Source: Nitrospirota bacterium | GTDB lineage: Bacteria; Nitrospirota; Thermodesulfovibrionia; Thermodesulfovibrionales; JdFR-88 | Length of the DNA: 64,000 bases | Direction: 5' to 3' | NCBI GenBank assembly: GCA_021789935.1 | Contig: JAJYIR010000013.1 | Span: forward strand, 1,651-65,650 | Part shown: positions 17,692-48,980 of the stretch, one piece after another | Numbering within the stretch: the first letter of the stretch is position 1 | Layout: every line of letters starts with the position of its first letter | Program-made: the position numbers and the translations under genes | The notes under the pieces: model-generated | What the model saw: only the letters and a program-made list of their open reading frames with translations | Told to the model about the DNA's origin: nothing | The model's database searches: none

Positions 17692-17697
17692 ATGTAT

Positions 17698-17725: not shown

Positions 17726-17748
17726 TCTTATTAAGGGAGGTGGTAAAT

Positions 17749-18447
17749 ATGGGGCCGGGGAATGTGGAAGGCATGGATCCGCCGGGGGGCCGCTTTGTGT
17801 TCAGGGAATGCAGGAAAATCATTATGGCCACAGGCAAGAAGGCAAGAAACCTTGCCGAGCTGGCTGAGCTTGCCGGCCAGGCGAGCGCCAACTCGATATA
17901 TCATCATACATATGAATATTTTTTTTCCGGGCACATAGTAGAATACACGAACGATTTCGCCCAATGGGTAGGGACGACTCTGGAGGCACGGGTGCTTTCG
18001 GAAAATCTCTCGAATATAGATCCCTTCAGGCATTCCGCTTCGCTGGACAGCCTGAGAGAGGAACTGCTGGGGTCAATTTCCCGCTATGTCAAGAAATACG
18101 GGGACCCGGGTAACGTACTGCCGGGGGAGGAGTTCTACTTCCAGGAATCGGTTACCGTAGTTTTTCCGGCCGGCTTCAGGGCCCTTAACCTGGCGGAGTT
18201 CCTTATGGCCATCCGTACCGTGGACCAGCAGTCCATCTATTACCACTTCTATGAAGGCAGAAGCAGGGTGAAGGGCGGGATTGACGATTTTTCAAGATGG
18301 GTGGATGACACTCTGGGGTACAAGGAACTTGCGCTTGATATCAGAAGCATAGACCCTTTCATGCACAGTATAGAAGGCATAAGGGCCCATATTGCAAATT
18401 TCATAGAAAAAGCCCTCAGAGAGGAGATAGAGGTAGGGGGAATATGA
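17749..18447 (+). CDS. internally duplicated protein of unknown function (possibly the DUF5752 family), coupled to treT
   Basis: Two homologous halves (SIYHHTYEYF...NDFAQWVGTTL...NIDPF and SIYYHFYEGR...DDFSRWVDDTL...SIDPF). Its stop overlaps the treT start (ATGA at 18444-18447). Confidence 0.7.
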   Translation: MGPGNVEGMDPPGGRFVFRECRKIIMATGKKARNLAELAELAGQASANSIYHHTYEYFFSGHIVEYTNDFAQWVGTTLEARVLSENLSNIDPFRHSASLDSLREELLGSISRYVKKYGDPGNVLPGEEFYFQESVTVVFPAGFRALNLAEFLMAIRTVDQQSIYYHFYEGRSRVKGGIDDFSRWVDDTLGYKELALDIRSIDPFMHSIEGIRAHIANFIEKALREEIEVGGI

Positions 18448-19658: not shown

Positions 19659-19693
19659 TAAAGAGGTTTTTTTATTTTTTGGCCCGGGAGAAA

Positions 19694-24188: not shown

Positions 24189-24216
24189 AAAACAAATCGG
24201 TGTAATCAGCAATTAA

Positions 24217-27200: not shown

Positions 27201-27243
27201 GTTTCCACTTTTTTTGGCAGAGGAATTGGTGCCGTATGAATAA
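24217..27243 (+). CDS. treY: malto-oligosyltrehalose synthase
   Basis: STYRLQFN..., DIVPNHM, GLRVDHLDGL, STHDSKRSEDVR. The exact start is uncertain (24217, 24252 or 24268) because of an N-terminal ETTETETTKTKT low-complexity tract. Confidence 0.9.
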   Translation: MPGENGAGQAGKMPRGAMQAETTETETTKTKTLRIPVSTYRLQFNRLLPFSQALRIIPYLHELGITDIYSSPHFKSAPGSLHGYDIVRYDQLNPEVGTLEEYGLFTDELSRHGMGQVQDIVPNHMCILGDNPWWQSVLENGQSSLYASFFDIDWSAPLETLRDKVLLPILGDQYGKTLEIGEIQLSFRQGGFFLTCCGNLLPIKPRSYEIILRYGLEELEKDIRGGEHYEELMSVLTAAGRMPEIPERDLEKKRERDLEKEIVKRRLWSLYESSPGVRAFIDGNVKTFNGVKGDPRSFDLLDGLISKQAYRLSSWVVATDEINYRRFFDINQLAAIRPELPDVFDESHRLIFKFIKQGRITGLRVDHLDGLYNPAEYLRNLQEESVRASLPEEEAQGGKADLKAGLNQKPPLVPFYIVGEKILLKGERVPEDWPICGTTGYDFMNSLNGVFIRPESARQMDEIYSRFIGGKLNFAAMAYHSKKLVVASSMSGEINVLGHRLYMLAQKSRYTRDFTLLSLTRALEEVMACFPVYRTYISASGVGERDRRYIEQAVKKAQRMNTSISAQTFEFIKRVLVLEYGLELSADDKGEWLDFVMKFQQQTGPIMAKGLEDTAFYTFNRLLSLNEVGGSPDRFGAPLEAFHGQNIERNKYWPFAMTATSTHDSKRSEDVRARLNVLTEMPRAWHKALLKWKRINKGKKPVLDKPVPGPNEEYHLYQVLLGVWPREGFFLNDQERESFTERIKQYMLKAAREAKVNTSWINPEKDYEEALLSFIERILRPMKKNKTPFLREFAPFANMVSNYGLLNSLSQALLKIASPGVPDFYQGTELWVFSLVDPDNRREVDYEARLRLLNELKSMEASMDRHLLCAELLKRLDDPRTKLYVTWKALQFRKKFKEVFVGGDYTPLEPEGLKKEHLCVFLRKSGLKTALACAPRFFAGLVPPGSVPAGETIWNGTHITLPAPGRFKDVFTDRVVETSEEGGRFFIPVGELLSGFPLFLAEELVPYE

Positions 27244-27269
27244 AAAAGCAGAAGGAGAGGATTTTTGAT

Positions 27270-29375
27270 TTGGACGAGCAGCTGATAAACGAGCTTGCGA
27301 AGACCATGGGCATAATGCCTGATTTTTATGATATATGGGGAAACCGGCACGACATAACCATTGAGACCAAAACGGGCGTGCTAAGGGCCATGGGCCTTCC
27401 AGTGGAGGACGAAGATGCCCTGAGGGTGTTATTGGAAAAAAGGCTCGAACCGGCGGTGCTGGAGCCTTCGGTCGCCGCGGAAAAGAATTCGGTTTTCAAG
27501 GTGTACGTCTGCCTTCCCTCATGCCTTGGCCGGACCCCTATCCGCATATTTCTTGAAGACGAGAAAAAGGACGTGCGGAATTGGTCCGTCAGGGAAGCCC
27601 CCGAAGAAGTCCTCGAGTTCAGGGGCCGTAAATACGGAAAATATCCCGTGGAGATCGGACCCCTCCCACAGGGTTATTACACTCTTTCCATCCACGCCCC
27701 TGGCAGGATAAGGGCCAGGTCCCGGTTGATAGTAGCGCCGCGGACATGCTACCTGCCGGAGGAATACATGAAATCCTGGGGCATCAACCTTGCCCTTCAT
27801 GAGATACGTTCAGGCGGCAACTGGGGAATCGGGGATTTCAGGGACCTGGGTTTCATAATGGACGTGGTGGCCGGGCTGGGTGGTGATTTTGCCGGTGTGC
27901 TTCCCCTGCATCAAATCCCGCTTCCCGAAAGCGTCAGCCCTTATTGGCCCTTAAGCAGGCTTTACCGCAATTTCATCTTCCTTGACTTGGAGGGCGTGCC
28001 GGAATTCAATGCCGCAGGCAGGGGCGGCCTGCAAAAAGAGATAGATGCCCTCATGGGGGCCCGGCACGTGGATTATGGCGGCGTGCATGCGCTTAAGCTG
28101 CGGATTCTTAAAGAGATGTTTGCCCGTTTTCGCAATGAGCATTATCCGGCCCGCACCGAAAGGGGACAGGCCTTTGAGGCCTTTATGGAAAAAGAGGGGG
28201 GCGCTCTGCTGGGCTACGCCACCTTCATGGCCCTGAGTGAGGTCCACGGGACGAACTGGAAGAATTGGCCTCGGGAGCTGAAAGACCCCCGCGGCGGCCC
28301 GGTGAAGGATTTCAGGCAGCAAAACATTGGAGCGGTGCTTTTTCATGTCTATGTCCAATGGCTCATAGACAGCCAGCTTGAAAACCTGTCCAAACGGGCC
28401 GCCAGAAACGGCATGCGCTCCGGCCTTTACCTGGACCAGGCCATAGGCACGGTCTCAGGTGGGGCCGACGATTGGATATATGGGGAATGCTTCGCCATTG
28501 GGGCCAGCGCCGGCGCGCCGCCGGATGAGTTTAATATGAAGGGGCAGAACTGGGGCTTTCCCCCCATGGCGCCGTACAAGATGCGGGAGTCCGGCTTCGA
28601 GGCCTTCATAGGGACCGCCTGCAAGAACATGGAGCACGCCGGGATGCTGAGGATTGACCACGCGCTTGGGCTGTTCCGCCTTTTCTGGATACCGGAGGGG
28701 ATGGAGCCATGGCAGGGGGCCTATGTAAAATACCCCGCGGAAGAGATGATGGGAATACTGGCCATTGAAAGCAGGCGGCATAAGACGGTTATAGTTGCGG
28801 AAGACCTGGGGACCGTTGGGCCGGAGGTGCGCGAGGCCCTGATGTCCAGGAATATGCTTTCCTACAGGCTGCTTATCTATGAGAGGCTCTATCCTTCCCC
28901 GGACCTTGTGCCTCCCGGCCAGTATCCCCGGATGGCCTTCTGCGCGGTAAGCACCCATGACCTGCCTACCCTTTACGGCTGGTGGGCCGGGCATGACATG
29001 GAAGTGAAACACTCGCTGTCCCTGTACCCTTCCGGGGATTCCTACAGGGAAGACCTTGCTGCAAGGGAAAGAGACAAGGCGATAATCCTGGCCGCCTTGA
29101 AAAAGGAAGGCCTCATGCCGGATAATTATAAAATGCCCGCAAATATGAATGAGGAACTCATGCTTGCCATATACAGACATCTTGGCAGAACGCCATGCCT
29201 TTACGTTTCTGTAAGCCTTGAGGACATATTCAAATCCCTTGAACAGCCAAACCTTCCGGGAAGCCGTGATGACTATCCTAACTGGAAGATGAAGACCCCC
29301 ATGCCCATAGAAGCCATGGCCGGCCCGGCGGCGTCTTTTGCCGGGGTCTTCAGGCAGGAAGGCAGAGGGCGTTGA
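27270..29375 (+). CDS. malQ: 4-alpha-glucanotransferase (GH77, long form)
   Basis: TTG start 9 nt after GGAGAGG. Motifs: LRIDHALGLFRLFWIP, VIVAEDLGTV, STHDLPT. Confidence 0.9.
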   Translation: MDEQLINELAKTMGIMPDFYDIWGNRHDITIETKTGVLRAMGLPVEDEDALRVLLEKRLEPAVLEPSVAAEKNSVFKVYVCLPSCLGRTPIRIFLEDEKKDVRNWSVREAPEEVLEFRGRKYGKYPVEIGPLPQGYYTLSIHAPGRIRARSRLIVAPRTCYLPEEYMKSWGINLALHEIRSGGNWGIGDFRDLGFIMDVVAGLGGDFAGVLPLHQIPLPESVSPYWPLSRLYRNFIFLDLEGVPEFNAAGRGGLQKEIDALMGARHVDYGGVHALKLRILKEMFARFRNEHYPARTERGQAFEAFMEKEGGALLGYATFMALSEVHGTNWKNWPRELKDPRGGPVKDFRQQNIGAVLFHVYVQWLIDSQLENLSKRAARNGMRSGLYLDQAIGTVSGGADDWIYGECFAIGASAGAPPDEFNMKGQNWGFPPMAPYKMRESGFEAFIGTACKNMEHAGMLRIDHALGLFRLFWIPEGMEPWQGAYVKYPAEEMMGILAIESRRHKTVIVAEDLGTVGPEVREALMSRNMLSYRLLIYERLYPSPDLVPPGQYPRMAFCAVSTHDLPTLYGWWAGHDMEVKHSLSLYPSGDSYREDLAARERDKAIILAALKKEGLMPDNYKMPANMNEELMLAIYRHLGRTPCLYVSVSLEDIFKSLEQPNLPGSRDDYPNWKMKTPMPIEAMAGPAASFAGVFRQEGRGR

Positions 29376-31845: not shown

Positions 31846-32340
31846 CTATTTGCGCGACGCCAGTTTTTTCTTTGTCCATTCGACAAGCCCGCCTGCCTCT
31901 ACAAGCTCACGCATGAAAGGCGGTATGGGGCTGGCGTTGTAAGTCTTGCCGGCGGCGCGGATGGTGCCGTTGCCGGTATCTATCTCTATAACGCTGCCCT
32001 CCGGGATGTTTTCAAAGAGTTCGGGGCATTCGAATATGGGCAGCCCTATATTGAACGAGTTTCTGAAGAATATGCGGGCGAAGCTTTTGGCCACCACGGT
32101 GTTTATGCCCGAGGCCTTGATGGCCAGAGGGGCATGTTCCCTTGATGAGCCGCAGCCAAAGTTCTTGCCGGCCACGATGATGTCCCCGGGCCTGACCTTG
32201 CCGGGGAAATCCTTGTCGGCGTCCTCCATGACATGTTTCGCCAGCTCCGCGGGGTCGGATGTGTTCAGATACCTGGCCGGTATTATCGCGTCCGTGTCCA
32301 CATCGTCACCAAATTTCCAGACCCTTCCTTTTATGACCAT
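31846..32340 (-). CDS. leuD: 3-isopropylmalate (or homoaconitate) dehydratase small subunit, archaeal type
   Basis: KGRVWKFGDDVDTDAIIPARYL and GKNFGCGSSREHA motifs. 164 aa. Confidence 0.88.
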   Translation of the reverse strand: MVIKGRVWKFGDDVDTDAIIPARYLNTSDPAELAKHVMEDADKDFPGKVRPGDIIVAGKNFGCGSSREHAPLAIKASGINTVVAKSFARIFFRNSFNIGLPIFECPELFENIPEGSVIEIDTGNGTIRAAGKTYNASPIPPFMRELVEAGGLVEWTKKKLASRK

Positions 32341-32629
32341 TTTCAGATAAACCTCCGCAATAGAAATGAAAGAAAATTGTATAACAGACTTGGGAAATGA
32401 AGCAATAGCAGTTCGCCGCGTTTTGCTTTGATATTATGCTTTTATCAACAAATCAGTCTTAGAAAACAAAAACCGTTAATGGTAAAAAAATGGAGCACCG
32501 AGTTTTTTCTCCCGCACCTTGTCTTCACGGACGACCCTCTCATAGGCGCGCTGTCCTGGATGCAGCTTCTTTTCATCGCCGGGCTTTTCATGTTTTTTCT
32601 TTTTTCCCGCGCCTCCACATCATCTTTTT

Positions 32630-35077
32630 TTACGCGGGATCCACCTTGACGGCGGCGATGGGCGCCTCCCCGTTTTTGGAAGGCAGCGTAAGCAGGTTCA
32701 CCTTTGCGTGGGCAAAATGCGCCGGAGCAAAGACCATTCCCTGCGGCACCTCATCCGTCACCCTGGCCTTCAGGTAGATGGCCTCGCCATTCCGGCCGCT
32801 GACCTTTACAAAACTATCGTTATATATGCGGCGGGCATCCGCGTCCGAGGGGTTTATCTGAAGGTATGCGTCAGGCGCAGCGGAATCCAGGTTGTTGGAT
32901 ATCGTGGTAAGGCTCCCGGAGTGCTGCATAAGGTTGCCCGTGGCAAAAAGAAGCGGATGCCCGCCATCGGCAGACTCCCTTGTTTCCTGCTCCACCGGTA
33001 TAAAGACGGGATGCGCCGTCTCCTGCCTTTGCTCAATGTCCGCAAGAGCGCTTGCCGAGAGCCCGGCAAAACTTTTGGCGTCCAGGTCCGTATGCATGAG
33101 TCTTCCCAGGTTTCTTAATATCTTCCAATCCGGAATGCCTTGCCCGATTTCGGACAGACACTTGACGATCTTTTGCGGTTTGCCGGTCATGCCCACGAAG
33201 GTGCCTTCCTTTTCCCCCCAGCCGGAGGCGGGAAGCACGACGTGGGCGAGCTTTGCAGTGGCGGTCATCATTATGTCCTGGACGACGAGGAGTTCCAGCC
33301 CGCCCAGTGTGTTCATCACCCTGGTGGTATCCGGGAAGGTGACCACCGGGTTTTCACCCATTATAACCAGGGCCTTCATTTGGCCGCCGTAAAGCATCTC
33401 CACGGCGTCAAGGCCCGTCTCGCCTCCTTCAAGCACCATTTGGGTCCCCATGGTGTTTGCGAACTCTGGCGGCAGGCCCAGCGCCTCCGGGCCCCTGCCA
33501 AGCAGTATCGCCAGGTCCATAAGGGCCAGCGCGGTGCCTTCGCCCTTTGTGTTCTCCGAGCTTCCGAAACATGCCATGAACATCGGGTTTTTTGCGGCCG
33601 CAAGCGCACTGGCCGCATGCCTGATGTCCAGCTCGGATACCCCGGCCATGACGGCGGCCGCGGAGGGCTTGTATCTTTCGAGGGTTTTTTTGAGTTCATC
33701 GAATCCTTTTACGGCTTCGGCCTTCTTATCGAAAAGGTCCGCTTCGATAAGCGCGCTCATGATGCCGTTTACAAGGGCCACGCCGGTTGCGGGCCTTATC
33801 CGCAGCCACTGGGAACTCCATCTTGAAAGTTTCGACTCCCTCGGGTCGGCCACTATTAGAGTGGCCTTGAGGTCCCTGTGCGCCGCAAGCGCCTTCAGCC
33901 CGTAAACGGGGTGTGTGGATGTGAGGTCGGACTCCAGCACGAAAATGACGTCGGCCTTAAGGGGAGCGTCAAGGTCGAGGGCCAGCCTCGAAATGCCGAA
34001 TGTTTTTTTAAGCGCCTCCACCTGTTTGGCATAGCCAAGCCTGGTCCTCGAATCTACGTTTTTGGAGCCCAGGGACAGGACCATGAACTTTTTGAGCATG
34101 TAGTTGTCTTCGACTGAGCAACGCTCAGAGCCCAATGCGCCTATGGCCCGGGGGCCATGCGCCTCTTTTATTTCCGCAAGCCTCCTGGCCGTGAATTCAA
34201 GGGCCTCCTGCCAGCTGGCGGGCTCAAGTTTGCCTTCTTTTCGCAGGAGGGGGGTTGAAAGCCTGTGTTCCGATTCTATGAAATCGAACCCGAACCTTCC
34301 CCTTGGGCAGAGGTCTCCCTTGCTTATGCCTACGCCGTCCTTGCCCCTTGCGCGCAGGATTTGGCCGTCCCTTAAGCTCAGGACGGAAGTGCATCCAACG
34401 GAACAGTAGGGGCAGATGTTTTCCTGCTCGTCCATGAACCACACCCTGGAGCGGAACTTATAAGACTTTGTCCCCAGGGCCCCCACGGGGCAGGCATCCA
34501 CGCACTGGCCGCAGAACTCGCAGTCCAGCGTTTCCTCAAACGCGGGGCTGACCTTTGTCTTGAACCCCCGTCCGATCAGGTTAAGGGCGCCCACACCCTG
34601 GTGCTCTTTGCATATTCTTACGCATTTGCCGCAGAGGATGCACCTGTTGGCGTTTCTTTCTATCAATGGCGCGGCCGTGGACTCCGGCTCGTGCTTCCTC
34701 TCATCGGCAAACCTGCTGGCCACCGGCCCGTATTTAAATGCCAGGTCCTGGAGATCGCATTCCCCGGCCTTGTCGCAGACGGGGCAGTCAAGCGGATGGT
34801 GCACCAGCAGCAGCTCCAGGACGGTCCTCCTGGCCTTCTCAAGCTTCGGCGTCTCCGTATGTATGATCATTCCGGCCTTGACGGGCGTGGAACAGGAGGC
34901 CAGGAACTTATGCATCCCTTCCACCTCGACCAGGCACAGACGGCATCCGCCGTAAGGCAGCAGCCTCCTGTCCCAGCAGAGGTGAGGTATATATATGCCG
35001 TTTGCAAGCGCTGCCTGGAGGATGGTGGTTTTGGGCTGCGCCTGTATGTTTTTGCCGTTTATGACGAACTCTATCAT
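32630..35077 (-). CDS. NuoG-like iron-sulfur subunit with a degenerate molybdopterin-oxidoreductase domain
   Basis: The start is trimmed to MIEFVINGK (ATGA overlap with the upstream stop). It has a 2Fe-2S site, a His-ligated 4Fe-4S site (HHPLDCPVCDKAGEC), two ferredoxin-type 4Fe-4S sites and CPYCSVGC. Where formate dehydrogenases carry Cys/Sec-His, this protein reads NVDSRTRLGY. Confidence 0.85.
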   Translation of the reverse strand: MIEFVINGKNIQAQPKTTILQAALANGIYIPHLCWDRRLLPYGGCRLCLVEVEGMHKFLASCSTPVKAGMIIHTETPKLEKARRTVLELLLVHHPLDCPVCDKAGECDLQDLAFKYGPVASRFADERKHEPESTAAPLIERNANRCILCGKCVRICKEHQGVGALNLIGRGFKTKVSPAFEETLDCEFCGQCVDACPVGALGTKSYKFRSRVWFMDEQENICPYCSVGCTSVLSLRDGQILRARGKDGVGISKGDLCPRGRFGFDFIESEHRLSTPLLRKEGKLEPASWQEALEFTARRLAEIKEAHGPRAIGALGSERCSVEDNYMLKKFMVLSLGSKNVDSRTRLGYAKQVEALKKTFGISRLALDLDAPLKADVIFVLESDLTSTHPVYGLKALAAHRDLKATLIVADPRESKLSRWSSQWLRIRPATGVALVNGIMSALIEADLFDKKAEAVKGFDELKKTLERYKPSAAAVMAGVSELDIRHAASALAAAKNPMFMACFGSSENTKGEGTALALMDLAILLGRGPEALGLPPEFANTMGTQMVLEGGETGLDAVEMLYGGQMKALVIMGENPVVTFPDTTRVMNTLGGLELLVVQDIMMTATAKLAHVVLPASGWGEKEGTFVGMTGKPQKIVKCLSEIGQGIPDWKILRNLGRLMHTDLDAKSFAGLSASALADIEQRQETAHPVFIPVEQETRESADGGHPLLFATGNLMQHSGSLTTISNNLDSAAPDAYLQINPSDADARRIYNDSFVKVSGRNGEAIYLKARVTDEVPQGMVFAPAHFAHAKVNLLTLPSKNGEAPIAAVKVDPA

Positions 35078-36939
35078 CTCGTCTGCACTCCTTTGGCCTG
35101 TTCGATTAATTCTTTTGCCAGGCTCCCCGGGCCTGTCTTGAGCGCCCCGAATTTGCACGCCTCATAGCAGGACCGGCACTTTATGCACATGGTCTGGTCT
35201 ATGACGTGGGGTGTTTTCTTTTCGCCCGACACCGCTTTTTGCGGGCACACCCTGGCGCAGGCCCCGCAGCCTTTGCACGTTTCGGGGTCTACATAGAAGG
35301 TCACTAAAGGTCTGCAGACCCCGGCCTTGCACCATCCCTCGTTTATATGGGATTCGAACTCCTCCCTGAAATATTTTATGGTAGTCAGCACCGGGTTGGG
35401 CGCGCTCTGGCCCAGGCCGCACAGGGACGTGTTTGTGATGTCCTGGGACAGGTCCTGCAGAAGCTCTATGTCCCCTTCCTTGCCCCTGCCCTCGGTGATG
35501 TCCACGAGCTTGTCGTGCATGACTTTTGTACCTATCCTGCAGGGAGGGCATTTGCCGCAGGACTCATCCGTGGTGAACTCCAGGAAGAATTTCGCCACGC
35601 TGACCATGCAGTTGAAATCGTCTATTACGACCATCCCCCCGGAGCCGACGATGGCGCCGGTCTTAGCGATGTCCTCGAACGTGACGGGCGTGTCCAGAAG
35701 CGCCTCCGGTATGCAGCCGCCCGAGGGGCCGCCAAGCTGTACGGCCTTGAACTTCCTGCCCTTCTTCATGCCTCCGCCGATGTCGAAGATTATCTTCCTC
35801 AGAGGCATGCCCATGGGCACCTCAACAAGGCCTATGTTGTTTATGGCCCCGGTCAGGGCGAACACCTTTGTGCCCGTGGATTTTTCCGTGCCGAGGCTCT
35901 TGAACCATCTTGCGCCGTTTAAGATTATGAGCGGGATGTTTGCGTATGTCTCCACGTTATTAAGGACGGTGGGTTTTCTCCACAGCCCCTGGGTGGTGGT
36001 ATGGGGGGGTTTTGGAATGGGCATACCCCGCTTTCCCTCTATGGAGCGCATAAGCGCCGTCGCCTCGCCGCATACGAACGCGCCCGCGCCCAGGTATATC
36101 TCTATGTCCAGGTTGAAGCCGGTGCCAAGGATGTTTTCACCCAGCAGGCCGTATGCTTTTGCGTCATCTATGGCCTTCTGCAGCCTCTGTACGGCAAGCG
36201 GGTACTCGGCCCTGACGTATATGTATCCCTTGCTTGCGCCGATGGCCTTTGCCCCTATTAGCATGCCCTCCAGCACCACATGAGGGTCGCCTTCCATGAT
36301 GCTCCTGTCCATGAAGGCGCCGGGGTCTCCCTCGTCCCCGTTGCAGAGGATGTATTTGAGCGGGCCGGGCACCATGTAGCAGAGCTCCCATTTAAGGCCG
36401 GTGGGGAAACCGGCGCCGCCCCTGCCCCTCAGGTCCGAGGCCTTGATCTCAGCTATTATTTCCTCCGGGGTCATGCTGGAAAGGGCCTTGGCGGCGGCCT
36501 GGTAGCCGTCCCTGGCGATGTATTCCTCTATATTGTCGGGGTCTATGAGCCCCTTGTTCCTTAGTGCGCGGAGCACCTGGAGGTTGAAAAAGGGTATCTC
36601 GCTCATGACGGGCAGGACATTTTTTTTCACCGGCTCCTTGTACATGAGCCTTTCCACCGGCCTGCCCTTTAGCAGGTGTTCCTCCACTATCTGGGGCACG
36701 TCCTCCGGGGTCAGCTTCTCATAGAATGTGCCGTCCGGATATACGGTCATGATGGGGCCCTGGGCGCAGAAACCGTTGCACCCCGTTATGACTATGTTTA
36801 TCTCTTCCTCAAGCCCCTTTTTGCGGAGTTCGGCATCGAGGGCCTGCTTCACTTTAAGCCCGCCGCCTGCCATGCAGCCGGTCCCTCCGCATATCATCAG
36901 GTTAGCCCTGAAATTGTCCATCTTTATGTGTTCCTCCAA
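35074..36939 (-). CDS. NuoF/HydB-like NAD(H)-binding flavoprotein with extra N-terminal 2Fe-2S and C-terminal 2x[4Fe-4S] domains
   Basis: GRGGAGFPTGLKW, DESCGKCPPCRIGT, an N-terminal thioredoxin-like CGGTGC...CNGFC, and C-terminal CKGCGACARVCP and CIKCRSCYEACK. Confidence 0.9.
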   Translation of the reverse strand: MEEHIKMDNFRANLMICGGTGCMAGGGLKVKQALDAELRKKGLEEEINIVITGCNGFCAQGPIMTVYPDGTFYEKLTPEDVPQIVEEHLLKGRPVERLMYKEPVKKNVLPVMSEIPFFNLQVLRALRNKGLIDPDNIEEYIARDGYQAAAKALSSMTPEEIIAEIKASDLRGRGGAGFPTGLKWELCYMVPGPLKYILCNGDEGDPGAFMDRSIMEGDPHVVLEGMLIGAKAIGASKGYIYVRAEYPLAVQRLQKAIDDAKAYGLLGENILGTGFNLDIEIYLGAGAFVCGEATALMRSIEGKRGMPIPKPPHTTTQGLWRKPTVLNNVETYANIPLIILNGARWFKSLGTEKSTGTKVFALTGAINNIGLVEVPMGMPLRKIIFDIGGGMKKGRKFKAVQLGGPSGGCIPEALLDTPVTFEDIAKTGAIVGSGGMVVIDDFNCMVSVAKFFLEFTTDESCGKCPPCRIGTKVMHDKLVDITEGRGKEGDIELLQDLSQDITNTSLCGLGQSAPNPVLTTIKYFREEFESHINEGWCKAGVCRPLVTFYVDPETCKGCGACARVCPQKAVSGEKKTPHVIDQTMCIKCRSCYEACKFGALKTGPGSLAKELIEQAKGVQTR

Positions 36940-36992
36940 CGGAAAAATTGGATATCTTGTTTTTTTCTATGATCTTTTTTTCTGCTTCCGGC

Positions 36993-37376
36993 TCAATAAG
37001 AGTTCTCGCTGCCCATTACCAGGGCATATTCCTGAACGGCATCGCCCCCCATGATGTGCTCCGTAAATATCCTCTTTATCTTTACGGCGTCCAACTGGCA
37101 GTATTTGACCGGGGCCTGGCCCGTTATCTCCACCGTGGCCATGGGCTCCTTGCTGCAAAACCCGGCGCAACCCGATGCCGTGACGATAACGTCTTTAACG
37201 TCGTTTTCCGCCAGGGCCTCGACGAGGGCGCTCATAACAGTTCTGGCCCCGGCGGATATTCCGCAGGTGCCCATGTGTATAATTACCCTGGCCCTGTGGT
37301 TTCCGTGCCTCAGGGTGAAGGTGGCCTCATACCTCTCTTTTATCTTTTTCAGGTCATCTATGGTCAGTCTTTGCAC
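36993..37376 (-). CDS. thioredoxin-like [2Fe-2S] ferredoxin (HydD-like small subunit)
   Basis: 127 aa with the pattern HMGTCGISAG...ASGCAGFCSKEP. Confidence 0.8.
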   Translation of the reverse strand: MQRLTIDDLKKIKERYEATFTLRHGNHRARVIIHMGTCGISAGARTVMSALVEALAENDVKDVIVTASGCAGFCSKEPMATVEITGQAPVKYCQLDAVKIKRIFTEHIMGGDAVQEYALVMGSENSY

Positions 37377-37403
37377 GAACGCCTCCTTTTAGGTATGCGG
37401 TCC

Positions 37404-38261
37404 CTATTCATACTGGGCAAGGATGTCCAGTGTCTTTACCGGGTTTACGGAACCGTGTGTGTCCTTGTCCACCACTACAACCGGGGCAAGGCCGCACGCG
37501 CCAAGGCACCTTACGCTTTCAAGCGAGAATTTTTTATCGGCCGTGACTTCCCCGATATCTATATTCAATTGCTCCTTCAGCCTCGCCAATATCTCCTCCG
37601 CCCTTTTCACGTAGCACGCGGTGCCCAGGCAGACCCTTACGTTGTGCCTGCCCTTGGGCTTCATGGTGAAAAAAGAGTAGAAGGAGACCACCCCGTGCAC
37701 CTCGCTTACCGGCAGGTTCAGCCCGCGGGCTATGTGTTTTTGGACAACCGGCGGCAGGTAGCCGATCAGATTCTGGGCCTCCTGGAGCACCGGGATAAGG
37801 CTTCCCGGCTTGTCTTTGTGTTTTTCAATTATCCCGGTCAGCTTTTCAGCCGTCTCCCCGGTGAAATCCTGGGATTCCGCCTTCCCGGATTTTTTCCTGA
37901 CCTCCATTGCCTTCGCTGCGGTCTCGATGAGCAGTGAGGGCGAAAACGGTTTGGGCAGGTAGTCTATGATCCCAAGCGCAAGGGCCTCCTTTATGCTTTC
38001 CTGGGAAGGATGGCCGGTAATAAGCACCAGGCATATTTCAGGGTTTTTGGCCCTCAGCTTCCTCATGAACTCCATCCCGTCCATGCCGGGCATCTTTATA
38101 TCGGTAATGACGAGGTCGTACGGCTTTGCGCCTTCGAGCATCTCGATGGCCTTAAGGGCGGAGAGGGCGGTGCTCACATCGTATCCCGCCGGCGAAAGTA
38201 TCCGCTCACAGCTTTTAAGTATTACTTCCTCATCGTCGACAACCAGAACGCTGCCTTTCAT
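37404..38261 (-). CDS. response-regulator receiver domain fused to a NuoE/HydC-like [2Fe-2S] subunit
   Basis: The N-terminal REC is complete (VVDDEE, ITDIKMPGMDG, LITGHPS, LPKPF). The C-terminal NuoE fold is present (IPVLQEAQ..., CLGTACY, CLGACGLAP). Confidence 0.88.
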   Translation of the reverse strand: MKGSVLVVDDEEVILKSCERILSPAGYDVSTALSALKAIEMLEGAKPYDLVITDIKMPGMDGMEFMRKLRAKNPEICLVLITGHPSQESIKEALALGIIDYLPKPFSPSLLIETAAKAMEVRKKSGKAESQDFTGETAEKLTGIIEKHKDKPGSLIPVLQEAQNLIGYLPPVVQKHIARGLNLPVSEVHGVVSFYSFFTMKPKGRHNVRVCLGTACYVKRAEEILARLKEQLNIDIGEVTADKKFSLESVRCLGACGLAPVVVVDKDTHGSVNPVKTLDILAQYE

Positions 38262-38337
38262 TTAATTGAATCCTCCTAAACAGAAAAATCCGGTGCTCTT
38301 TCTTGTTTCTTCCATGCGTGAATCCATAAAGAAACCT

Positions 38338-38967
38338 CTAAACTCTATTATGACTCTTTATGGCCGTCTTTGTCTGGTCTCTGCCTTCCATGACGGCCGT
38401 GTTAATGGCATCCCTTACCATAAGAAGTATCTCCGGCAGGTTTACCGGGGTTTCCCCAAGCGCCTCCTTCAGCGCGTCCGAATCGAACCCGTAATGGAAA
38501 CTGCTTCCGCTGGCGGGACCGCCGTTGATGTCATAAAACAGGACGTACCGGATCTCGGGGTGGCCGCACATCATCGAAAGCATGGTGGCCCCGATGTTCC
38601 CGAGCGGCTTTCTGTCTATATGGCCGAACCTGAAAGAGGCAAAAAGGGTGGTCCCCTTTCCCGGTTCCGAATCCAGACGGAACTCCCCGCCGCACTCCGT
38701 GGCCGCCTGCTTCAAAAGGGGTATCCCCAGCCCAAAGCGCTTTTTTTGCTTTTTGCTTTTGCTTTTATTTTTGTCCCCGTCGTAAGTAAAAAAAGGGTCC
38801 TCGGCCTTAAGCAGGACGCCGCCGTCCATGCCGTGGCCGTTGTCCTCCACGCTCAGTGAATAATTATCACTGCCGGGGTCTTCCGCTATCCGTATAACTA
38901 TCTTTGTAGCCCCGGCGTTTATCGAGTTTTCAGCAATATCGAGTATATGGAGCGATAGATCTTCCAT
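38338..38967 (-). CDS. stand-alone histidine-kinase-like ATPase (HATPase_c) protein
   Basis: N box HILDIAENSINAG, G1 DNGHGM, G2 GLGIPL, then GKGT. No DHp/His domain. It contains a KNKSKSKKQKK insertion. Confidence 0.8.
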   Translation of the reverse strand: MEDLSLHILDIAENSINAGATKIVIRIAEDPGSDNYSLSVEDNGHGMDGGVLLKAEDPFFTYDGDKNKSKSKKQKKRFGLGIPLLKQAATECGGEFRLDSEPGKGTTLFASFRFGHIDRKPLGNIGATMLSMMCGHPEIRYVLFYDINGGPASGSSFHYGFDSDALKEALGETPVNLPEILLMVRDAINTAVMEGRDQTKTAIKSHNRV

Positions 38968-39722
38968 TAATCAAAAACCGCCTTTCTTCCGTCTGCCGCC
39001 TTAAGTGCCAGGGCAATTTCTTTCAGGCTTGCCTCTTTCAGCAGAAACCCCGTCCTTTTCCCGCCTATGTCCTCCAGCCTGTGCGCATCGGAGCAGCGAA
39101 GCCCCGGCTGCCCCTGGAGGGAAAATGGTTTTTGTCTTTGCCCGCAGACCTCAAGCGCGTCGAACTCCAGGTCCGCCGGAATGAAGCCGAGCTGGGAAGT
39201 GACGCTGAAAGAGCCCCGGTCGGCATGGCTTGCTATCGCCACTCCCCCAAGGCTGTGGATGGCCGCCACCAGGCCGGAAAGCCTTATGCCCGTTGCGCCG
39301 GAAAGGGGCCTTCTGCTGAAGCCCAGCACTTCGTCATCCTCGTTCACTATGACCTGCCCGAACGGAGGGGGCTGTCTGTCCCCCTTTTCCCTTCCCTGCG
39401 GCCCCCGGTAAAAACTGTCCAGTTCCCTGTAGACGCTCTCCTGCATCCTGAGGGCGGCCTCCAGAGTTTCAAAAAGGGCGAGCACGTGGACTTCCTCGGA
39501 GGAGGTTATCTCCATTGCGGGCACCAGGGAGACACCGGCTTTTGAGGCCGCGCGGGCAGCGGCTTCCAGGTTCTCGCAGGAGTTGTGGTCCGCTATGGCC
39601 ACTATGTCCAGCCCCGCTTCCGAGGCCTTGCGCATGATCCGCCATGGTGTCATGTCCAGCTCTGCGCAGGGGGAAAGACAGCTGTGTATGTGCAGGTCCG
39701 CCGAAAAAAACCTCACTGCCAT
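38967..39722 (-). CDS. PHP-domain phosphoesterase
   Basis: DLHIHSCLSPC N-terminal metal motif and AIADHNS. Its stop overlaps the next start (TAATG). Confidence 0.8.
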   Translation of the reverse strand: MAVRFFSADLHIHSCLSPCAELDMTPWRIMRKASEAGLDIVAIADHNSCENLEAAARAASKAGVSLVPAMEITSSEEVHVLALFETLEAALRMQESVYRELDSFYRGPQGREKGDRQPPPFGQVIVNEDDEVLGFSRRPLSGATGIRLSGLVAAIHSLGGVAIASHADRGSFSVTSQLGFIPADLEFDALEVCGQRQKPFSLQGQPGLRCSDAHRLEDIGGKRTGFLLKEASLKEIALALKAADGRKAVFD

Positions 39723-39752
39723 TTTTTTGCCCCGGTCACAGGCTTTTTTATT

Positions 39753-40097
39753 TTACCTGACCTCATTTTTCAAAAGAAGGTTATAGACCATCCCAACCAT
39801 CTCGTATGTCTGCAAAGAGGTGCTCATGACCGGTATGAACTCGGCCTCCGCTTTCTCCAGAGTCTCCGCATCTATCTGCTTGCCCCCGGTCACTATTATT
39901 CCGGCCAGGCCCTTTATTGCCGCCACCGCCGCCACATTGGGATGGGTCTGCCGCGTTATCCATATGTTGCCTTCCTTGCCGTTTGCAAGGACGTCGGAGA
40001 GCATGTCGCTCGCATAACAGCCGTTTATGACGGCCTCCGTATTGCCATTGTTTCTCATGTCCATATCCAGCCTGTCTATAAGTTCCCGTACGGTCAT
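39753..40097 (-). CDS. DRTGG domain protein
   Basis: 114 aa. The segment GNIWITRQTHPNVAAVAAIKGLAGIIVTGG is typical of DRTGG. Confidence 0.75.
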   Translation of the reverse strand: MTVRELIDRLDMDMRNNGNTEAVINGCYASDMLSDVLANGKEGNIWITRQTHPNVAAVAAIKGLAGIIVTGGKQIDAETLEKAEAEFIPVMSTSLQTYEMVGMVYNLLLKNEVR

Positions 40098-40102
40098 TTC
40101 AA

Positions 40103-40594
40103 CTATTCCTGCCTTGCATTTAATTGTGGTGTTTTTAGGTTTATGGTGATCTCAAGTGTTGTGCCTTCGCCTGGCACGGAATCTATTGAGAGGGCGTCGG
40201 CGTTCTTTTTTATGTTGGGCAGGCCCATGCCGCTGCCCCACCCGAATTCCCGGGCCCAGACGGGCGCGGTGGTGTAGCCCTCCTTCATTGCAAGCCCTAC
40301 GTCCTTTATTCCGGGCCCCATGTCGGTGACAGTGATCGTAAGAGTTTCACCCTCTATTGAGTACCTCAGGCTCCCCGCCACAGCATGGATTATGACGTTT
40401 ATCTCCGCCTCGAAGGAGCAGATGGCCGCCCGCCTGATAAGCTGGGCCGGCACCCCAAGCGCGGCAAGCTCGCAGCGCAGGCTCTTTGAGCCTGCCCCCG
40501 CGTCCGAGAAGTCCCCTCCGTTTAGGGGGAAGTAGATGTGCTGCCCGCCGTTTACGGCACCGTCCGTATCTTCTCTTTTTTCCCCTGAACTCAT
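40103..40594 (-). CDS. RsbW-like anti-sigma regulatory factor / serine kinase (HATPase_c_2)
   Basis: The start is trimmed to MSSGEK (ATGA overlap with the upstream stop). Motifs: EAEINVIIHA, DMGPGI, GMGLPNI, GEGTTL. Confidence 0.8.
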   Translation of the reverse strand: MSSGEKREDTDGAVNGGQHIYFPLNGGDFSDAGAGSKSLRCELAALGVPAQLIRRAAICSFEAEINVIIHAVAGSLRYSIEGETLTITVTDMGPGIKDVGLAMKEGYTTAPVWAREFGWGSGMGLPNIKKNADALSIDSVPGEGTTLEITINLKTPQLNARQE

Positions 40595-41358
40595 TCCGTC
40601 AAAACGCCGGAGCTTACGCGGAGCAGCCATACGAGCCAGTTTTCCGAAAGGCATTCCGAAACAAAACCCGGCAGCGTCTCGTTTGCCTTTTCGTTTCTGT
40701 TTATCACGATACCGCTCATCGGCGCCTTCAGCTCCATTATCCTGCCTTCCCCGAGCAGGACCCTGGCAAAGGTCTCCCCGGAAGTGATGGCGGGCTGGTC
40801 GATGAGGTCTATGTAAAGCATATGCCCTCCCAGGTACCATTGCCTGACATCGAAACCTATCTCCCATCCTCCATTTACAGGCCTTGCCCATGCCCCATCC
40901 TTGTAATAGATGGCCTGTTCGTCCATCTCCGACGCTACCGTCACATATTGCTTGAACTGGTCAATAAAGGCCTTGCGGAGTATCCATCCCCGCTTATCAA
41001 AGACCTTTGCGGCGACGTTTTTCATGAACTCGGGCGTGAAGGGTTTTTCGAGGAACTCGAACGCGCCAAGCCTTATTGCCTCCTTGGCGTCTTCGAGCGT
41101 GGGGTATCCGGTTATCATAACCACATCGGTTTTGGGCTGGATGACGCGGGCCTCTCCCAACACCTCTATCCCGTGTATGTCGGGCAGCCTGATGTCGGAT
41201 ATTAGGAGATCAACCTCTTCGGAGTTCAATCTCTTTAAGGCCTCGGCCCCGCTGGTGACCGCATTTACCGTGTAGCCTTCCGCCCCCAGTATCCTTTTGC
41301 AGCTAAGACCCACTACCGGATCATCATCTACAACCAGTATCTTTTTCCCTGCTGCCAT
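40591..41358 (-). CDS. response-regulator receiver domain fused to a glycine-cleavage-H-like (lipoyl-fold) domain lacking the lipoyl Lys
   Basis: The start is trimmed to MAAGKKILVVDDD, which follows GGAGG. The REC is complete (SDIRLPDIHG, ITGYP, EKPF). The C-terminus aligns by eye with GcvH (YYKDGAWAR...IGFD...KAPMSGIVINRNE), but GEGR replaces ESVK. Confidence 0.7.
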   Translation of the reverse strand: MAAGKKILVVDDDPVVGLSCKRILGAEGYTVNAVTSGAEALKRLNSEEVDLLISDIRLPDIHGIEVLGEARVIQPKTDVVMITGYPTLEDAKEAIRLGAFEFLEKPFTPEFMKNVAAKVFDKRGWILRKAFIDQFKQYVTVASEMDEQAIYYKDGAWARPVNGGWEIGFDVRQWYLGGHMLYIDLIDQPAITSGETFARVLLGEGRIMELKAPMSGIVINRNEKANETLPGFVSECLSENWLVWLLRVSSGVLTE

Positions 41359-41400
41359 TACGACCTCAATGCCTCCTTTTATTAAAACATAAACAGTGAA

Positions 41401-41415
41401 GCAATATGTGTGCCA
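41401..41415 (-). promoter_or_regulatory. near-consensus sigma54 promoter TGGCAC-ACATA-TTGC
   Basis: The reverse complement of 41401-41415 reads TGGCACACATATTGC. It lies about 45 nt upstream of the ATG at 41358. Confidence 0.7.
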
Positions 41416-41564
41416 AAATCGCAACACCTTATTTTAAAGGGATTCTTTTTAGGCATGGAAAGTGATATGGGGAGGAAAAGTGAAAGTGTATAAATTTCCT
41501 ATACAGTGGCGGCAAAGCCTGACCTGATAAAAATAATATTAATGTCCCGTTTCATGGGTAAACC

Positions 41565-41999
41565 ATGGAATTTGTATACTGGAGGATGATCATCGAATCA
41601 CCCGGGGCACTTGCCCGCCTCATGAAGGAGTCTTTTGAAAAACTGGGCCCCTACATTGAAAAGCACACGCAAAGGGTTTGCCCCGTCTGCCAAAAAGTCT
41701 GCTGCGCCAACAAGCACGGGACGCCCGAACGTGAAGACTTTCTGTTTTACCGTGCGCTCGGTGTGGAACCTGAGCCCGCCAGAGGGGCCCCCGATGAGAT
41801 ATGCAGTCTGCTTGGCGGCACGGGATGCGAGCTTCCAAGATGGCAGAGGCCCTTCAGGTGCACATGGTATTTCTGCGGGCCGCTTCTGGATTCCATGCGC
41901 CGGGGAAACGGCCGGGAGTACAGGCGGCTCGTGGCTGAATTGGCCCTGCTTGTGGAACTGAGAGGGAGGCTCATAAGCATTGGTCCGCTTCAGGAATAA
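41565..41999 (+). CDS. Cys-cluster protein (YkgJ/CxxCxxCC-like)
   Basis: CPVCQKVCC motif plus further Cys residues (CSLLGGTGC, FRCTWYFC). Its stop abuts the next gene's ATG. Confidence 0.55.
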   Translation: MEFVYWRMIIESPGALARLMKESFEKLGPYIEKHTQRVCPVCQKVCCANKHGTPEREDFLFYRALGVEPEPARGAPDEICSLLGGTGCELPRWQRPFRCTWYFCGPLLDSMRRGNGREYRRLVAELALLVELRGRLISIGPLQE

Positions 42000-43244
42000 A
42001 TGACAGACATCGACAGGATACTTGGCGTTCTCGTTTTCCTGATCGTGCTTGTCAGGAAAAAGGTGCCGGCGGGGGCAGTGCTGCTTCTGGGCTCTCTTTT
42101 GCTTGCGGTCCTTTATCTCATGCCTGCGGGTGTCCTGTTTTCCGCCCTGGAAACGGCCCTGGTAAAAACCCCCGAGGCCGTAAAGGTGGCCCTGGCTCTT
42201 ACCGCCATACGGGGGTTTGAGCTTGTGCTCAGGGAAAAAAAGATCCTGCAGGGGATGATGAATGCCTCAAGGAATTTTTCGAGCGGGAAAAAGGCCCTCA
42301 TTGTTTCCATGCCTCTGCTCATAGGCACCCTTCCGTCAATGGGGGGCGCGTATTTTTCCGCGCCGATGGTGGAGGAGGCCTCAAAAGGGATGGGGCTTGC
42401 CGCGGAGCGGAAAGGGTTTTTGAACTACTGGTTCAGGCACCCCTGGGAATACGTGCTTCCACTTTATCCGGGTATAGTGCTTGCAAGCGCGGTCTCGGGG
42501 ACCAGGCTGGACACGCTGATGCTTTTCAATCTGCCATATGCCCTGGGGGTTGCGGCAACGGGTTATATATTCGGTTTAAGGGGGATCGGGGGCGGGCCCG
42601 CCGCGCGCGAATCCGCGCGGGAAGGCGTCAGGGAGCAAAAAAGACAAAAAAAACAAAAAAGACCTTTTGAAGGTTTTTTGAGTTTTCTGCCAATTTTTTC
42701 CATATTGGCGATGGTCATAATCTTCGGGATGGAGTTCCAGTGGGCCATCCTTGCCGCCCTTGCCGGCCTTTTTGTCTTTTATAAATACCGGCCGTCAGAG
42801 GTATGGAGGGTAATCAGGCTCTCCTTCTCCATGGATGTTTTACTTCTTGTCGCCGGTGTCATGATATTCAAGCAGGTGCTTGTTGACTCCGGGGCGGTTG
42901 CCAACCTGGGCCGGTCTCTTGCCGTGGAAGGGATACCGCTTATGGCGCTGCTTTCCGCCATTCCTTTTGTGGCAGGCCTGCTGACAGGCCATACAATGGC
43001 ATTTGTGGGGGCGGCTTTTCCGCTCCTGATGTCCCTGCCCGGGGGAAGCGGGCCGCACGCCATATCCTTTGCCTTTGCCTGCGGTTTTCTGGGAGTGCTG
43101 CTGAGCCCGGTCCATATCTGCCTGATGCTTTCAAGGGAATACTTCAAGGCGGACCTTTGGGGCATATACAAAAGGACCATACCCGCGGCCGTGGTGATAT
43201 TTATGGTGGCAGTGGGGGAGTACCTCATATTCCGCCCGTTCTGA
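42000..43244 (+). CDS. polytopic membrane protein (possibly a DUF401-type permease)
   Basis: About 10-12 hydrophobic helices in two halves, joined by a charged loop that contains an EQKRQKKQKRP insertion. Confidence 0.65.
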   Translation: MTDIDRILGVLVFLIVLVRKKVPAGAVLLLGSLLLAVLYLMPAGVLFSALETALVKTPEAVKVALALTAIRGFELVLREKKILQGMMNASRNFSSGKKALIVSMPLLIGTLPSMGGAYFSAPMVEEASKGMGLAAERKGFLNYWFRHPWEYVLPLYPGIVLASAVSGTRLDTLMLFNLPYALGVAATGYIFGLRGIGGGPAARESAREGVREQKRQKKQKRPFEGFLSFLPIFSILAMVIIFGMEFQWAILAALAGLFVFYKYRPSEVWRVIRLSFSMDVLLLVAGVMIFKQVLVDSGAVANLGRSLAVEGIPLMALLSAIPFVAGLLTGHTMAFVGAAFPLLMSLPGGSGPHAISFAFACGFLGVLLSPVHICLMLSREYFKADLWGIYKRTIPAAVVIFMVAVGEYLIFRPF

Positions 43245-48296: not shown

Positions 48297-48980
48297 ATGC
48301 CGCCTCTTGTAATTGGCATATGCGGGGCAGGCAGCGGCTCCGGGAAGACTACCATGGCAGAGGAACTCCTTAGGAGGGCCACGGGGCGCGGCATGCAGGC
48401 TGATGAGGCCCCCCCGAAGCCAGGAGCCCGTTTGGGAAATGACCGCGAAGCCTGCCCGGCAAGCGTTAGCGCCGGCCATATGGTAGATGCAAGCGGCAGC
48501 CCGCCCCACCCGGTAAACGCCCCCTGGGGGTTCATAAAATTCACAAAAACCGGACTATATACCTCTGTTGTAACCGGTACGGATGCCCTGCTGGAGGAAG
48601 GAAAAGACACCTCCAGGGTGCTAAAAGCCGGAGCCCATCGGGCAATCTGGGTATGCAGCCCCGGCGGGGCCGGCCTTGAGGAGGCGCTGTCCATGGCGAT
48701 CGGCGAACTGCACGGGTGCAGTGTGGTTGTGGTGGAGGGCAACAGTGCCGTTGAGCTTTTAAAGCCCGATATTGTAATATTCATGAGCGGCCTTTTTTTT
48801 AAAAGCGGGGCGGAGTCAGCCCTGCGCATGGCCGATATAGTGTTCAGGCCCGATGGGGCCGTGGTCCCGGCGGCACCCGATGCCATTAAAAAAGGTGCGG
48901 TTTTCTGCGGCGGCCTTGAGTTGAGCGCCGGTGAAGTTTTGAAACGCGTGGTCGAGAGAGAGGGGAAACGGACTGTTTAA
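48297..48980 (+). CDS. MobB-like P-loop protein with a ~50-aa low-complexity insertion
   Basis: GICGAGSGSGKTT Walker A, IKFTKT and GKDTSRVLKAGA resemble MobB. The insertion after the P-loop helix is atypical. Confidence 0.55.
   Translation: MPPLVIGICGAGSGSGKTTMAEELLRRATGRGMQADEAPPKPGARLGNDREACPASVSAGHMVDASGSPPHPVNAPWGFIKFTKTGLYTSVVTGTDALLEEGKDTSRVLKAGAHRAIWVCSPGGAGLEEALSMAIGELHGCSVVVVEGNSAVELLKPDIVIFMSGLFFKSGAESALRMADIVFRPDGAVVPAAPDAIKKGAVFCGGLELSAGEVLKRVVEREGKRTV

Follow-up and report, generated by a model that had tools for sequence, protein, structure and literature searches.

A 64,000-nucleotide stretch of the Nitrospirota bacterium contig JAJYIR010000013.1 (the whole stretch is called the window below) carries on its minus strand a gene in which a response-regulator receiver (REC) domain is fused to a NuoE/HydC/BfuC-type [2Fe-2S] subunit. 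The 285-residue product is referred to as REC-NuoE. We propose that REC-NuoE is the [2Fe-2S] subunit of a soluble HydABC/Bfu-type, NAD(P)H-/ferredoxin-linked complex, which would be switched post-translationally through the phosphorylated receiver, and we give this reading a probability of roughly 0.55. The gene and its parts are laid out as follows.

37404-38261, minus strand: REC-NuoE (REC-BfuC/HydC) gene, 285 codons plus stop; continuous open reading frame (ORF) with the Pfam domains Response_reg and 2Fe-2S_thioredx.
38272-38277, minus strand: Shine-Dalgarno motif AGGAGG, 10 nt 5' of the ATG (38259-38261), read from the sequence.
37887-38252, minus strand: residues 4-125, the REC domain; (βα)5 fold in which α5 is long (Pfam, AlphaFold2 (AF2), Foldseek).
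38100-38102, minus strand: codon GAT of Asp54, the predicted phospho-acceptor, invariant in 120 relatives.
37860-37886, minus strand: inter-domain linker, residues 126-134, placed by the predicted local distance difference test (pLDDT) of AF2, by column entropy and by indels among relatives.
37407-37859, minus strand: residues 135-285, the NuoE/HydC/BfuC domain, in which a thioredoxin-like [2Fe-2S] domain follows a four-helix bundle (PF01257, PDB matches, Foldseek).
37494-37631, minus strand: span of the TGC codons of the ligands Cys211, Cys216, Cys252 and Cys256, invariant in 120 relatives.

Pfam recognized both halves of REC-NuoE far above the cutoffs. Response_reg (PF00072) covered residues 5-114 (E = 4.7e-28, 98 bits against a cutoff of 30.2), and 2Fe-2S_thioredx (PF01257) covered residues 143-284 (E = 1.5e-49, 168 bits against a cutoff of 24.8), the latter match spanning profile positions 3-144 of 145. 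The receiver contains the acidic pocket D9-D10, D54 within VITDIKMPGMDG, T82 in LITG, K104 in LPKPF and the switch residue Tyr101. The cluster ligands are Cys211 and Cys216 in CLGTAC and Cys252 and Cys256 in CLGAC. Every motif quoted in the preliminary description, which claimed a complete REC domain and a NuoE fold with four Cys residues in one ORF, was found. The best PDB sequence matches of the receiver were the receivers of DctD, FixJ, PleD and NtrC, and Foldseek aligned this half with 3jte at a template modelling (TM) score of 0.87. For the C-terminal half, the top NCBIfam matches were HoxE, the formate dehydrogenase gamma subunit and NuoE, and Foldseek returned FdsG, HydC and NuoE with TM scores of 0.7-0.8. 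Its best solved relatives, 7T2R_C (E = 7e-44), 8A6T_C and 7Q4V_C, are the HydC chains of bifurcating NiFe- and FeFe-hydrogenases. No chain among the PDB sequence and Foldseek matches spanned both halves, and REC-NuoE has no DNA-binding domain. The sequence of the receiver is that of a fully competent phospho-acceptor, and the C-terminal half is classified as a NuoE/HydC/BfuC-type [2Fe-2S] subunit.

The AF2 model, built on a multiple sequence alignment of the 120 relatives, had a mean pLDDT of 81 (the query started at codon 2, so the model numbering is the protein numbering minus one). Five strands alternate with five helices in the receiver, and α5 reaches residue 125. Residues 126-134 are without regular secondary structure, with pLDDT values below 50 at 126-132. 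The helical bundle of the NuoE half starts right after this segment, with helices at model residues 134-193, followed by the βαβ domain. The linker of about 45 residues suggested earlier was an overestimate, as the disordered part comprises about 9 residues and the Pfam envelopes of the two domains lie 28 residues apart.

A sequencing or assembly frameshift could, in principle, have fused a separate response-regulator gene with nuoE, a danger that the preliminary description had itself pointed out. The probability of such an artefact is practically negligible. The identical 285-aa protein was called on 10 contigs from different samples, the three places inspected belonging to three different ENA samples, and a 71%-identical relative was found on 23 contigs. 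At the 90% identity level, the family comprises more than 120 clusters, which are 65-100% identical to the window protein and all carry both Pfam domains. The junction is intact in all relatives, with a continuous linker that tolerates indels. The named sources of the listed clusters are Nitrospiraceae, Thermodesulfovibrionales, Dissulfurispiraceae and Nitrospirae metagenome-assembled genomes, with one exception labelled Alphaproteobacteria.

Residues D9, D10, D54, T82, Y101 and K104, together with the four Cys ligands, are invariant in 120 aligned full-length relatives (65-88% identity). The receiver Asp, whose loss in orthologs was named at the outset as a finding that would speak against the switch, is thus kept throughout the clade of the window. 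In receivers, α1 is the kinase-docking helix and α4-β5 is the usual output or dimer face. The mean column entropies of α1, α4 and β5 were 0.34-0.66 bits in REC-NuoE, as compared with 1.1-1.6 bits for α2, α3 and α5. This is the pattern expected under selection for kinase docking and for the output face. Variation peaks in the linker, which has a mean column entropy of 1.85 bits and differs by indels among the relatives. A Ser-Cys pair in α1 is invariant in the clade of 65-100% identity, both in REC-NuoE (Cys18, approximately 38208-38210) and in RECx (residue 20), the second response regulator of the operon. Cys18 was considered as a redox site but is probably not one: despite its invariance in this clade, the residue is Ala in the orthologue of L002 (related loci are numbered with an L), which has Ser-Ala at the position of the pair. 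The Ser-Cys pair is probably a kinase-specificity feature common to both receiver families.

REC-NuoE belongs to an operon that contains the following further genes.

36993-37376, minus strand: HndB/HydD-like small thioredoxin-like ferredoxin, 127 aa; weak NCBIfam 2Fe-2S ferredoxin match (E = 2e-7), conserved position between the NuoE and NuoF genes.
35074-36921, minus strand: NuoF/HydB/BfuB flavoprotein, 615 aa, with an N-terminal [2Fe-2S] domain, the flavin mononucleotide (FMN)/NADH site, a [4Fe-4S] domain and a C-terminal 2x[4Fe-4S] domain (Pfam).
32630-35077, minus strand: NuoG-like BfuA subunit, 815 aa, with [2Fe-2S], several [4Fe-4S] and a molybdopterin-oxidoreductase-fold domain (Pfam, NCBIfam).
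38338-38967, minus strand: HATPase_c-only protein (HydE-like), 209 aa (Pfam).
38967-39722, minus strand: PHP-family phosphoesterase, 251 aa (Pfam), syntenic in related loci.
39753-40097, minus strand: DRTGG-domain protein, 114 aa (Pfam), syntenic in related loci.
40103-40594, minus strand: HATPase_c_2 protein (SpoIIAB-like Ser kinase/anti-sigma type), 163 aa (Pfam, NCBIfam); the 163-aa call is that on identical contigs.
40591-41358, minus strand: RECx, second response regulator, 255 aa, REC plus a GcvH-like C-terminal domain (Pfam REC; weak GCV_H match, E = 0.002).

REC-NuoE occupies the position of hydC, directly ahead of the hydD-like and then the hydB-like gene, so that the NuoF gene lies two genes downstream. 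It is the only NuoE-type gene of the operon and of the window. Since this sole NuoE-type gene stands in an operon with HydB/NuoF and NuoG-like subunits, any signal that the receiver takes up must act on or through that enzyme module. The operon is followed by leuD and leuB, and no other nuo genes flank it. A promoter and terminator scan of 32300-41700 gave counts at the shuffle background and no usable operon boundaries. RECx has invariant REC pocket residues and is represented by at least 120 clusters, with PF01597 precomputed on most relatives. Lipoylation of its GcvH-like domain is unlikely, because an invariant Gly occupies the position of the lipoyl-Lys.

The gene order also bears on a reading of REC-NuoE as a free-standing regulator, whose NuoE-like part would provide a redox or partner-binding input instead of forming part of a complex. 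Such a regulator would fit the two independent domains of the AF2 model and the tandem REC-NuoE genes of L090, one of which has a truncated NuoE part. It is difficult to reconcile, however, with the hydC position of the gene and with the lack of another NuoE-type gene in the operon or the window. HydB-type NuoF proteins, moreover, have been solved only with a HydC/NuoE partner (7Q4V, 7T2R, 8A6T). We consider a free-standing regulator very improbable.

The identity of the enzyme was approached through its core subunits. According to the survey of the Bfu family (Schut et al. 2022, PMC9304861), the Bfu core consists of BfuB, with the FMN/NADH site and five clusters including an N-terminal [2Fe-2S] and a C-terminal 2x[4Fe-4S], and of BfuC, with one cluster. 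The NuoF of the operon aligns over residues 5-595 with HydB of A. woodii (7Q4V_B, E = 1e-245), with the Cys motifs in register. Its Pfam domains, this alignment and the Cys ligands of the BfuC-type half reproduce the BfuBC core. By the criteria of PMC9304861, the operon core is assigned to the HydABC/Bfu family, with electron bifurcation or confurcation as a candidate activity.

The resemblance to HydC/BfuC is close. Residues 135-285 align end to end with the approximately 150-190-aa subunits of A. woodii (7Q4V), T. kivui (8A6T), T. maritima (7P5H) and the NiFe-HydABCSL complex of A. mobile (7T2R), with E-values from 7e-44 to 1.5e-31. The four Cys residues, the subsequent hydD-like and hydB-like genes and the full-length similarity of NuoF to HydB are also in common. 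In contrast, no solved chain of this type has an N-terminal receiver, and the large subunit of the window has neither an H-cluster domain nor a pterin site with selenocysteine (Sec)/Cys-His. The NuoE half likewise shares its fold and cluster-binding motif with NuoE (Nqo2, NDUFV2) of complex I and with FdsG, but REC-NuoE lies outside a nuo operon, its partner NuoF has the extra Fe-S domains of HydB, and the catalytic residues of formate dehydrogenase are absent. An assignment of the operon as a complex I N-module was therefore rejected: nuo genes do not flank it, NuoF has the HydB-type extra Fe-S domains, and relatives have a separate canonical nuoABCDEFG close by.

The NuoG-like subunit differs from a formate dehydrogenase at the catalytic position, where 'ARVCHS' of R. 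capsulatus FdsA aligns with 'TRLGYA'. Gly-Tyr is found at this position in the window and in the family members L001-L005 and L085, and also in L020 and L023, which lack the receiver. The canonical NuoG of the relatives L002 and L005 has Gly-Phe at the same position. True formate dehydrogenases of other loci have 'CARL*HS' (Sec) or 'CARLCHS'. Without Sec/Cys-His, the NuoG-like subunit is not a formate dehydrogenase, and the 815-aa protein was rejected as an enzyme of the FdsABG/FdhA type for this replacement by Gly-Tyr. A site for a third substrate was not found in the operon, which encodes no H-cluster domain, no Sec/Cys-His in the BfuA-like subunit and no further redox subunit. The molybdopterin-oxidoreductase fold of the NuoG-like subunit (32630-35077) is complete despite the Gly-Tyr. 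A gene for FdhD (FdhD-NarQ) comes after the NuoG-like orthologue in L085 (15783-16568) and L087 (17515-18282). The window contains no FdhD; a gene at 48297-48980 gave a short sub-threshold match to MobB (N-terminal P-loop region, 26.2 bits against a cutoff of 26.6).

The gene set of the operon recurs in the Nitrospirota loci L001-L005, L086 and L087. The first five of these are at 54-55% identity. A species-genome scan gave at least five full-length REC-NuoE matches at 54-55% identity. L006 and L007 have the same cluster with a receiver-less NuoE, and the receiver is thus an addition to a system that is complete without it. Next to REC-NuoE, RECx occurs in the window, L001-L005, L086 and L087, being split into REC and GCV_H gene calls in L087, and it was present in the cluster of every Thermodesulfovibrionales-type locus examined. 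For about 25 of the listed RECx clusters, the longest contig has the same length as that of a listed REC-NuoE cluster, which suggests that the two genes of each pair lie on one contig.

Histidine kinases adjoin the fusion in several of the relatives. In L002, a HAMP-HisKA-HATPase kinase lies directly upstream and is followed by a single receiver, RECx and REC-NuoE. The three-receiver arrangement occurs at the same positions in L003-L005; the upstream kinase was looked at in L002. The N-terminal extracytoplasmic part of the L002 kinase (6178-7755) has the motifs CLRCH and CYNASCH, which suggest a c-type haem sensor domain. L084, at 41% identity, shows the order Cache-HAMP-HisKA-HATPase kinase, NtrC-type regulator, REC-REC, REC-NuoE, NuoF and polyferredoxin-like BfuA. 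The 588-aa protein of L084 was examined as an [FeFe]-hydrogenase and rejected, as Pfam detected only Fe-S domains in it.

The loci L089 (5538-12905) and L091 (4563-11929) come from two independent samples and are the most informative of the related loci. Both begin with sigma-54, followed by a fusion of a sensory [FeFe]-hydrogenase with HisKA-HATPase (648 aa) and by an NtrC-type regulator. REC-NuoE and NuoF come next, and the last gene of the series encodes another Fe-S subunit with a receiver tag, REC-Fer2_4-Fer4_Nqo3 (347 aa). The two receivers of L089 are 98% identical as proteins over 148 residues. At the DNA level, the two receiver segments (first 420 bp) are 99.8% identical within L089 and 94% within L091, compared with approximately 90% between the loci. 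These values indicate that the paired receivers undergo concerted evolution, which fits two receivers that are read by one kinase, that pair with each other, or both. The two loci would also give the sensory hydrogenase a defined set of candidate targets. Taken together, the adjacency of kinases in L002, L084, L089 and L091 lends plausible contextual support to a phosphorylation-based switch.

The architecture is not confined to the close relatives of the window. Of the best 150 matches in a search of 1.84 billion representatives clustered at 50% identity, 15 combined a receiver with NuoE. The NuoE domains of the distant fusions are 38-51% identical to that of the window, whereas many receiver-less NuoE proteins reach 51-61%. 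This implies that the fusion arose more than once or that the receiver was lost repeatedly. The third modules differ as well. NuoG-like partners are found in the window, L085 and L090, a polyferredoxin-like BfuA in L084 and an Hdr-like set in L088. In L089, the partner is a short HoxU-like subunit, and the contig also contains genes of a Hox-type NiFe hydrogenase. The association of the fusion with different third modules and the distant similarity of the NuoE domains argue for repeated selection of the combination.

Further variants of the architecture were encountered among the distant proteins (numbered with a P) and loci. P0121 and P0128 are tandem single polypeptides of the form REC-NuoE'(no Cys)-REC-NuoE, and L090 contains two adjacent REC-NuoE genes at 8201-9933, the first with a truncated NuoE part. 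In P0172 (358 aa), a HATPase_c (HydE-like) domain stands at the N-terminus of NuoE, a Rosetta-stone link of the HydE-type ATPase to NuoE/HydC. P0145, P0152, P0159 and P0166 are fusions of the molybdopterin fold with NuoE.

With the above results in hand, we propose a mechanism in which Asp54 phosphorylation and the steps after it are inferred. A histidine kinase, whose gene would lie outside the window here and lies directly upstream in relatives, would phosphorylate Asp54. The phosphorylated receiver, attached by a short flexible linker, would then switch its partner through the conserved α4-β5 face. One option is pairing with another receiver, which could be that of a second copy in an oligomeric enzyme, RECx in the window or the REC-tagged second subunit in L089. 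Alternatively, the receiver may dock on the NuoF/NuoE module or be released from it. Either change of partner would alter the assembly of the complex or its electron flow after translation. A post-translational switch of the enzyme by a kinase signal is plausible and finds backing in the genomic context.

Several observations weigh against the proposed switch. The window contains no HisKA kinase, and RECx is the only other receiver there; Pfam analysis of the large ORFs in the 64 kb revealed no histidine kinase, and tblastn with two kinases taken from relatives returned only the HATPase-only gene. The AF2 monomer (predicted TM score 0.48) with its disordered linker shows no preferred orientation of the domains and defines no contact surface. 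The NuoG-like subunit has no recognisable catalytic site, which leaves the object of the switch undefined. The HydE-like ATPase, PHP, DRTGG and HATPase_c_2 genes also accompany operons with a receiver-less NuoE (L006, L007, L020), so that regulation of these enzymes does not need the receiver. Finally, some receivers of distant REC-NuoE proteins are degenerate: Asp54 is replaced by Tyr in P0124, and pocket residues are lost in P0171 and P0191. The domain can, therefore, persist without phosphorylation, and the switch does not extend to all proteins of this architecture.

The degenerate members P0124, P0171 and P0191 and the lack of a kinase in the window are what would be expected if the receiver were a structural module only, that is, a pseudo-receiver for phosphorylation-independent dimerisation or docking. 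The Nuo-binding protein Rv3143, which was reported not to be phosphorylated by the tested kinases or by acetyl phosphate (PMC9274095), points in the same direction. In the clade of the window, however, every phosphorylation residue is invariant in 120 sequences that have diverged to 65% identity, and α1 is conserved. Kinases, furthermore, adjoin the gene in relatives. We regard a purely structural receiver as improbable.

A stronger competitor of the proposed switch reverses the direction of the signal. The preliminary description held that phosphorylation would act on an electron-transfer subunit and not on DNA binding. The genuine, conserved fusion and the lack of a DNA-binding domain agree with such an output and support this reading in part; the direction is less secure, since the complex would accommodate opposite signalling equally well. 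The NuoEF(G)-like module would then be a cytoplasmic sensor of the NADH/ferredoxin redox state, and the state of the FMN or the [2Fe-2S] center would tune the gain or loss of phosphate at the receiver. REC-NuoE would serve as a phosphate sink or relay node that is gated by redox state and tunes RECx and the NtrC-type regulators. A NuoG-like subunit without Sec/Cys-His in an operon that encodes no third-substrate subunit is compatible with such a sensor, as are the crowding of the cluster with signalling proteins and the presence of several receivers per kinase in relatives. On the other hand, receiver-less orthologous operons with a true Sec formate dehydrogenase (L010, L011, L014) have the same NuoE/HydD/NuoF core, which marks this core as an enzyme module. 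NuoF retains every cofactor motif of the catalytic HydB, and in two relatives an FdhD gene neighbours that of the NuoG-like subunit, a hint that the enzyme carries a cofactor. Reverse signalling is, in our judgement, unlikely, while deserving more weight than the structural reading of the receiver.

The proposed switch can be compared with known signalling systems. Response regulators whose output is not DNA binding include CheB, PleD, RssB and CheY. REC-NuoE is similar to them in that a canonical receiver precedes the effector part. It differs in the nature of the effector, which is an Fe-S electron-transfer subunit of a multi-subunit oxidoreductase and not an enzyme domain or adaptor. In mycobacteria, the orphan receiver Rv3143/MSMEG_2064 binds complex I, with crosslinks mainly to NuoD, and changes the respiratory behaviour (PMC9274095). 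It resembles REC-NuoE as a receiver without a DNA-binding domain that is genetically linked to NADH-dehydrogenase genes and for which modulation by protein contact has been proposed. Rv3143 is, however, a separate protein on membrane-bound complex I, whereas the receiver of REC-NuoE is covalently fused to NuoE of a soluble HydABC-like module and has lost none of the phosphorylation residues. Rv3143 is the closest functional precedent, as a receiver that affects an NADH dehydrogenase by protein contact.

Signalling has also been associated with the hydABC clusters themselves. The words receiver, response regulator and kinase are all absent from the Bfu family survey (PMC9304861). The HATPase HydE of A. 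woodii was described as having a role in 'assembly or signalling' (PMC3315566), and sensory hydrogenases that contain PAS or His-kinase domains have been described (PMC11406978). The operon of the window has the same set of accessory genes as hydABC clusters, i.e. those for a HydE-type HATPase, PHP, DRTGG and HATPase_c_2. The hydABC accessory proteins and the group C sensory [FeFe]-hydrogenases are separate polypeptides, whereas the REC-NuoE fusion places a defined signalling domain on the enzyme itself.

The remaining neighbours of the operon can be described briefly. Divergent from it, at 41565-43244 on the plus strand, lie a Cys-rich 144-aa ORF without a family match and a DUF401 membrane protein, a position that is kept in L081-L083 and L086. 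Two unrelated neighbours are on the plus strand: a 1462-aa fusion of the BadF/BcrA-type activase (BcrAD_BadFG and DUF2229) at 11665-16053, and a glycogen/trehalose-type cluster at 17692-29375 (DUF5752, TreT-like glycosyltransferase, alpha-amylase-family proteins, GH57 and MalQ).

Full-text literature searches returned no published description of the REC-NuoE fusion; most subscription-journal papers lie outside their coverage, and an earlier mention is possible. Public databases contain hundreds of such sequences under automatic names, for example 'NADH:ubiquinone oxidoreductase subunit E/CheY-like chemotaxis protein'. The architecture is visible there but uninterpreted. Taken singly, the two halves are ordinary members of their families, and it is the combination that appears to be new. 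The finding itself is one of domain architecture, read from the genomes of uncultured organisms.

In anaerobes, HydABC/Bfu-type enzymes keep NADH and ferredoxin in balance with H2, formate or other carriers. Even if the switch were disproved, the fusion would single out, in Thermodesulfovibrionales, a family of NuoG-like Bfu complexes that await characterisation. If phosphorylation does switch electron flow or assembly, an electron-transfer subunit would join the list of response-regulator outputs. The fusion offers a testable handle on the regulation of HydABC/Bfu-type enzymes and on what the sensory hydrogenases signal to. A wider generalisation, which we advance tentatively and with the odds leaning somewhat against it, is that two-component phosphorylation directly gates HydABC/Bfu-type enzymes via receiver-fused small Fe-S subunits, and that this design has repeatedly evolved or been retained with different catalytic partners. 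In L089 and L091, the sensory [FeFe]-hydrogenase kinase would then wire H2 sensing to sigma-54 transcription and to two receiver-tagged electron-transfer subunits. If true, such gating would give this enzyme family its first defined post-translational control and a sensory hydrogenase its first defined output.

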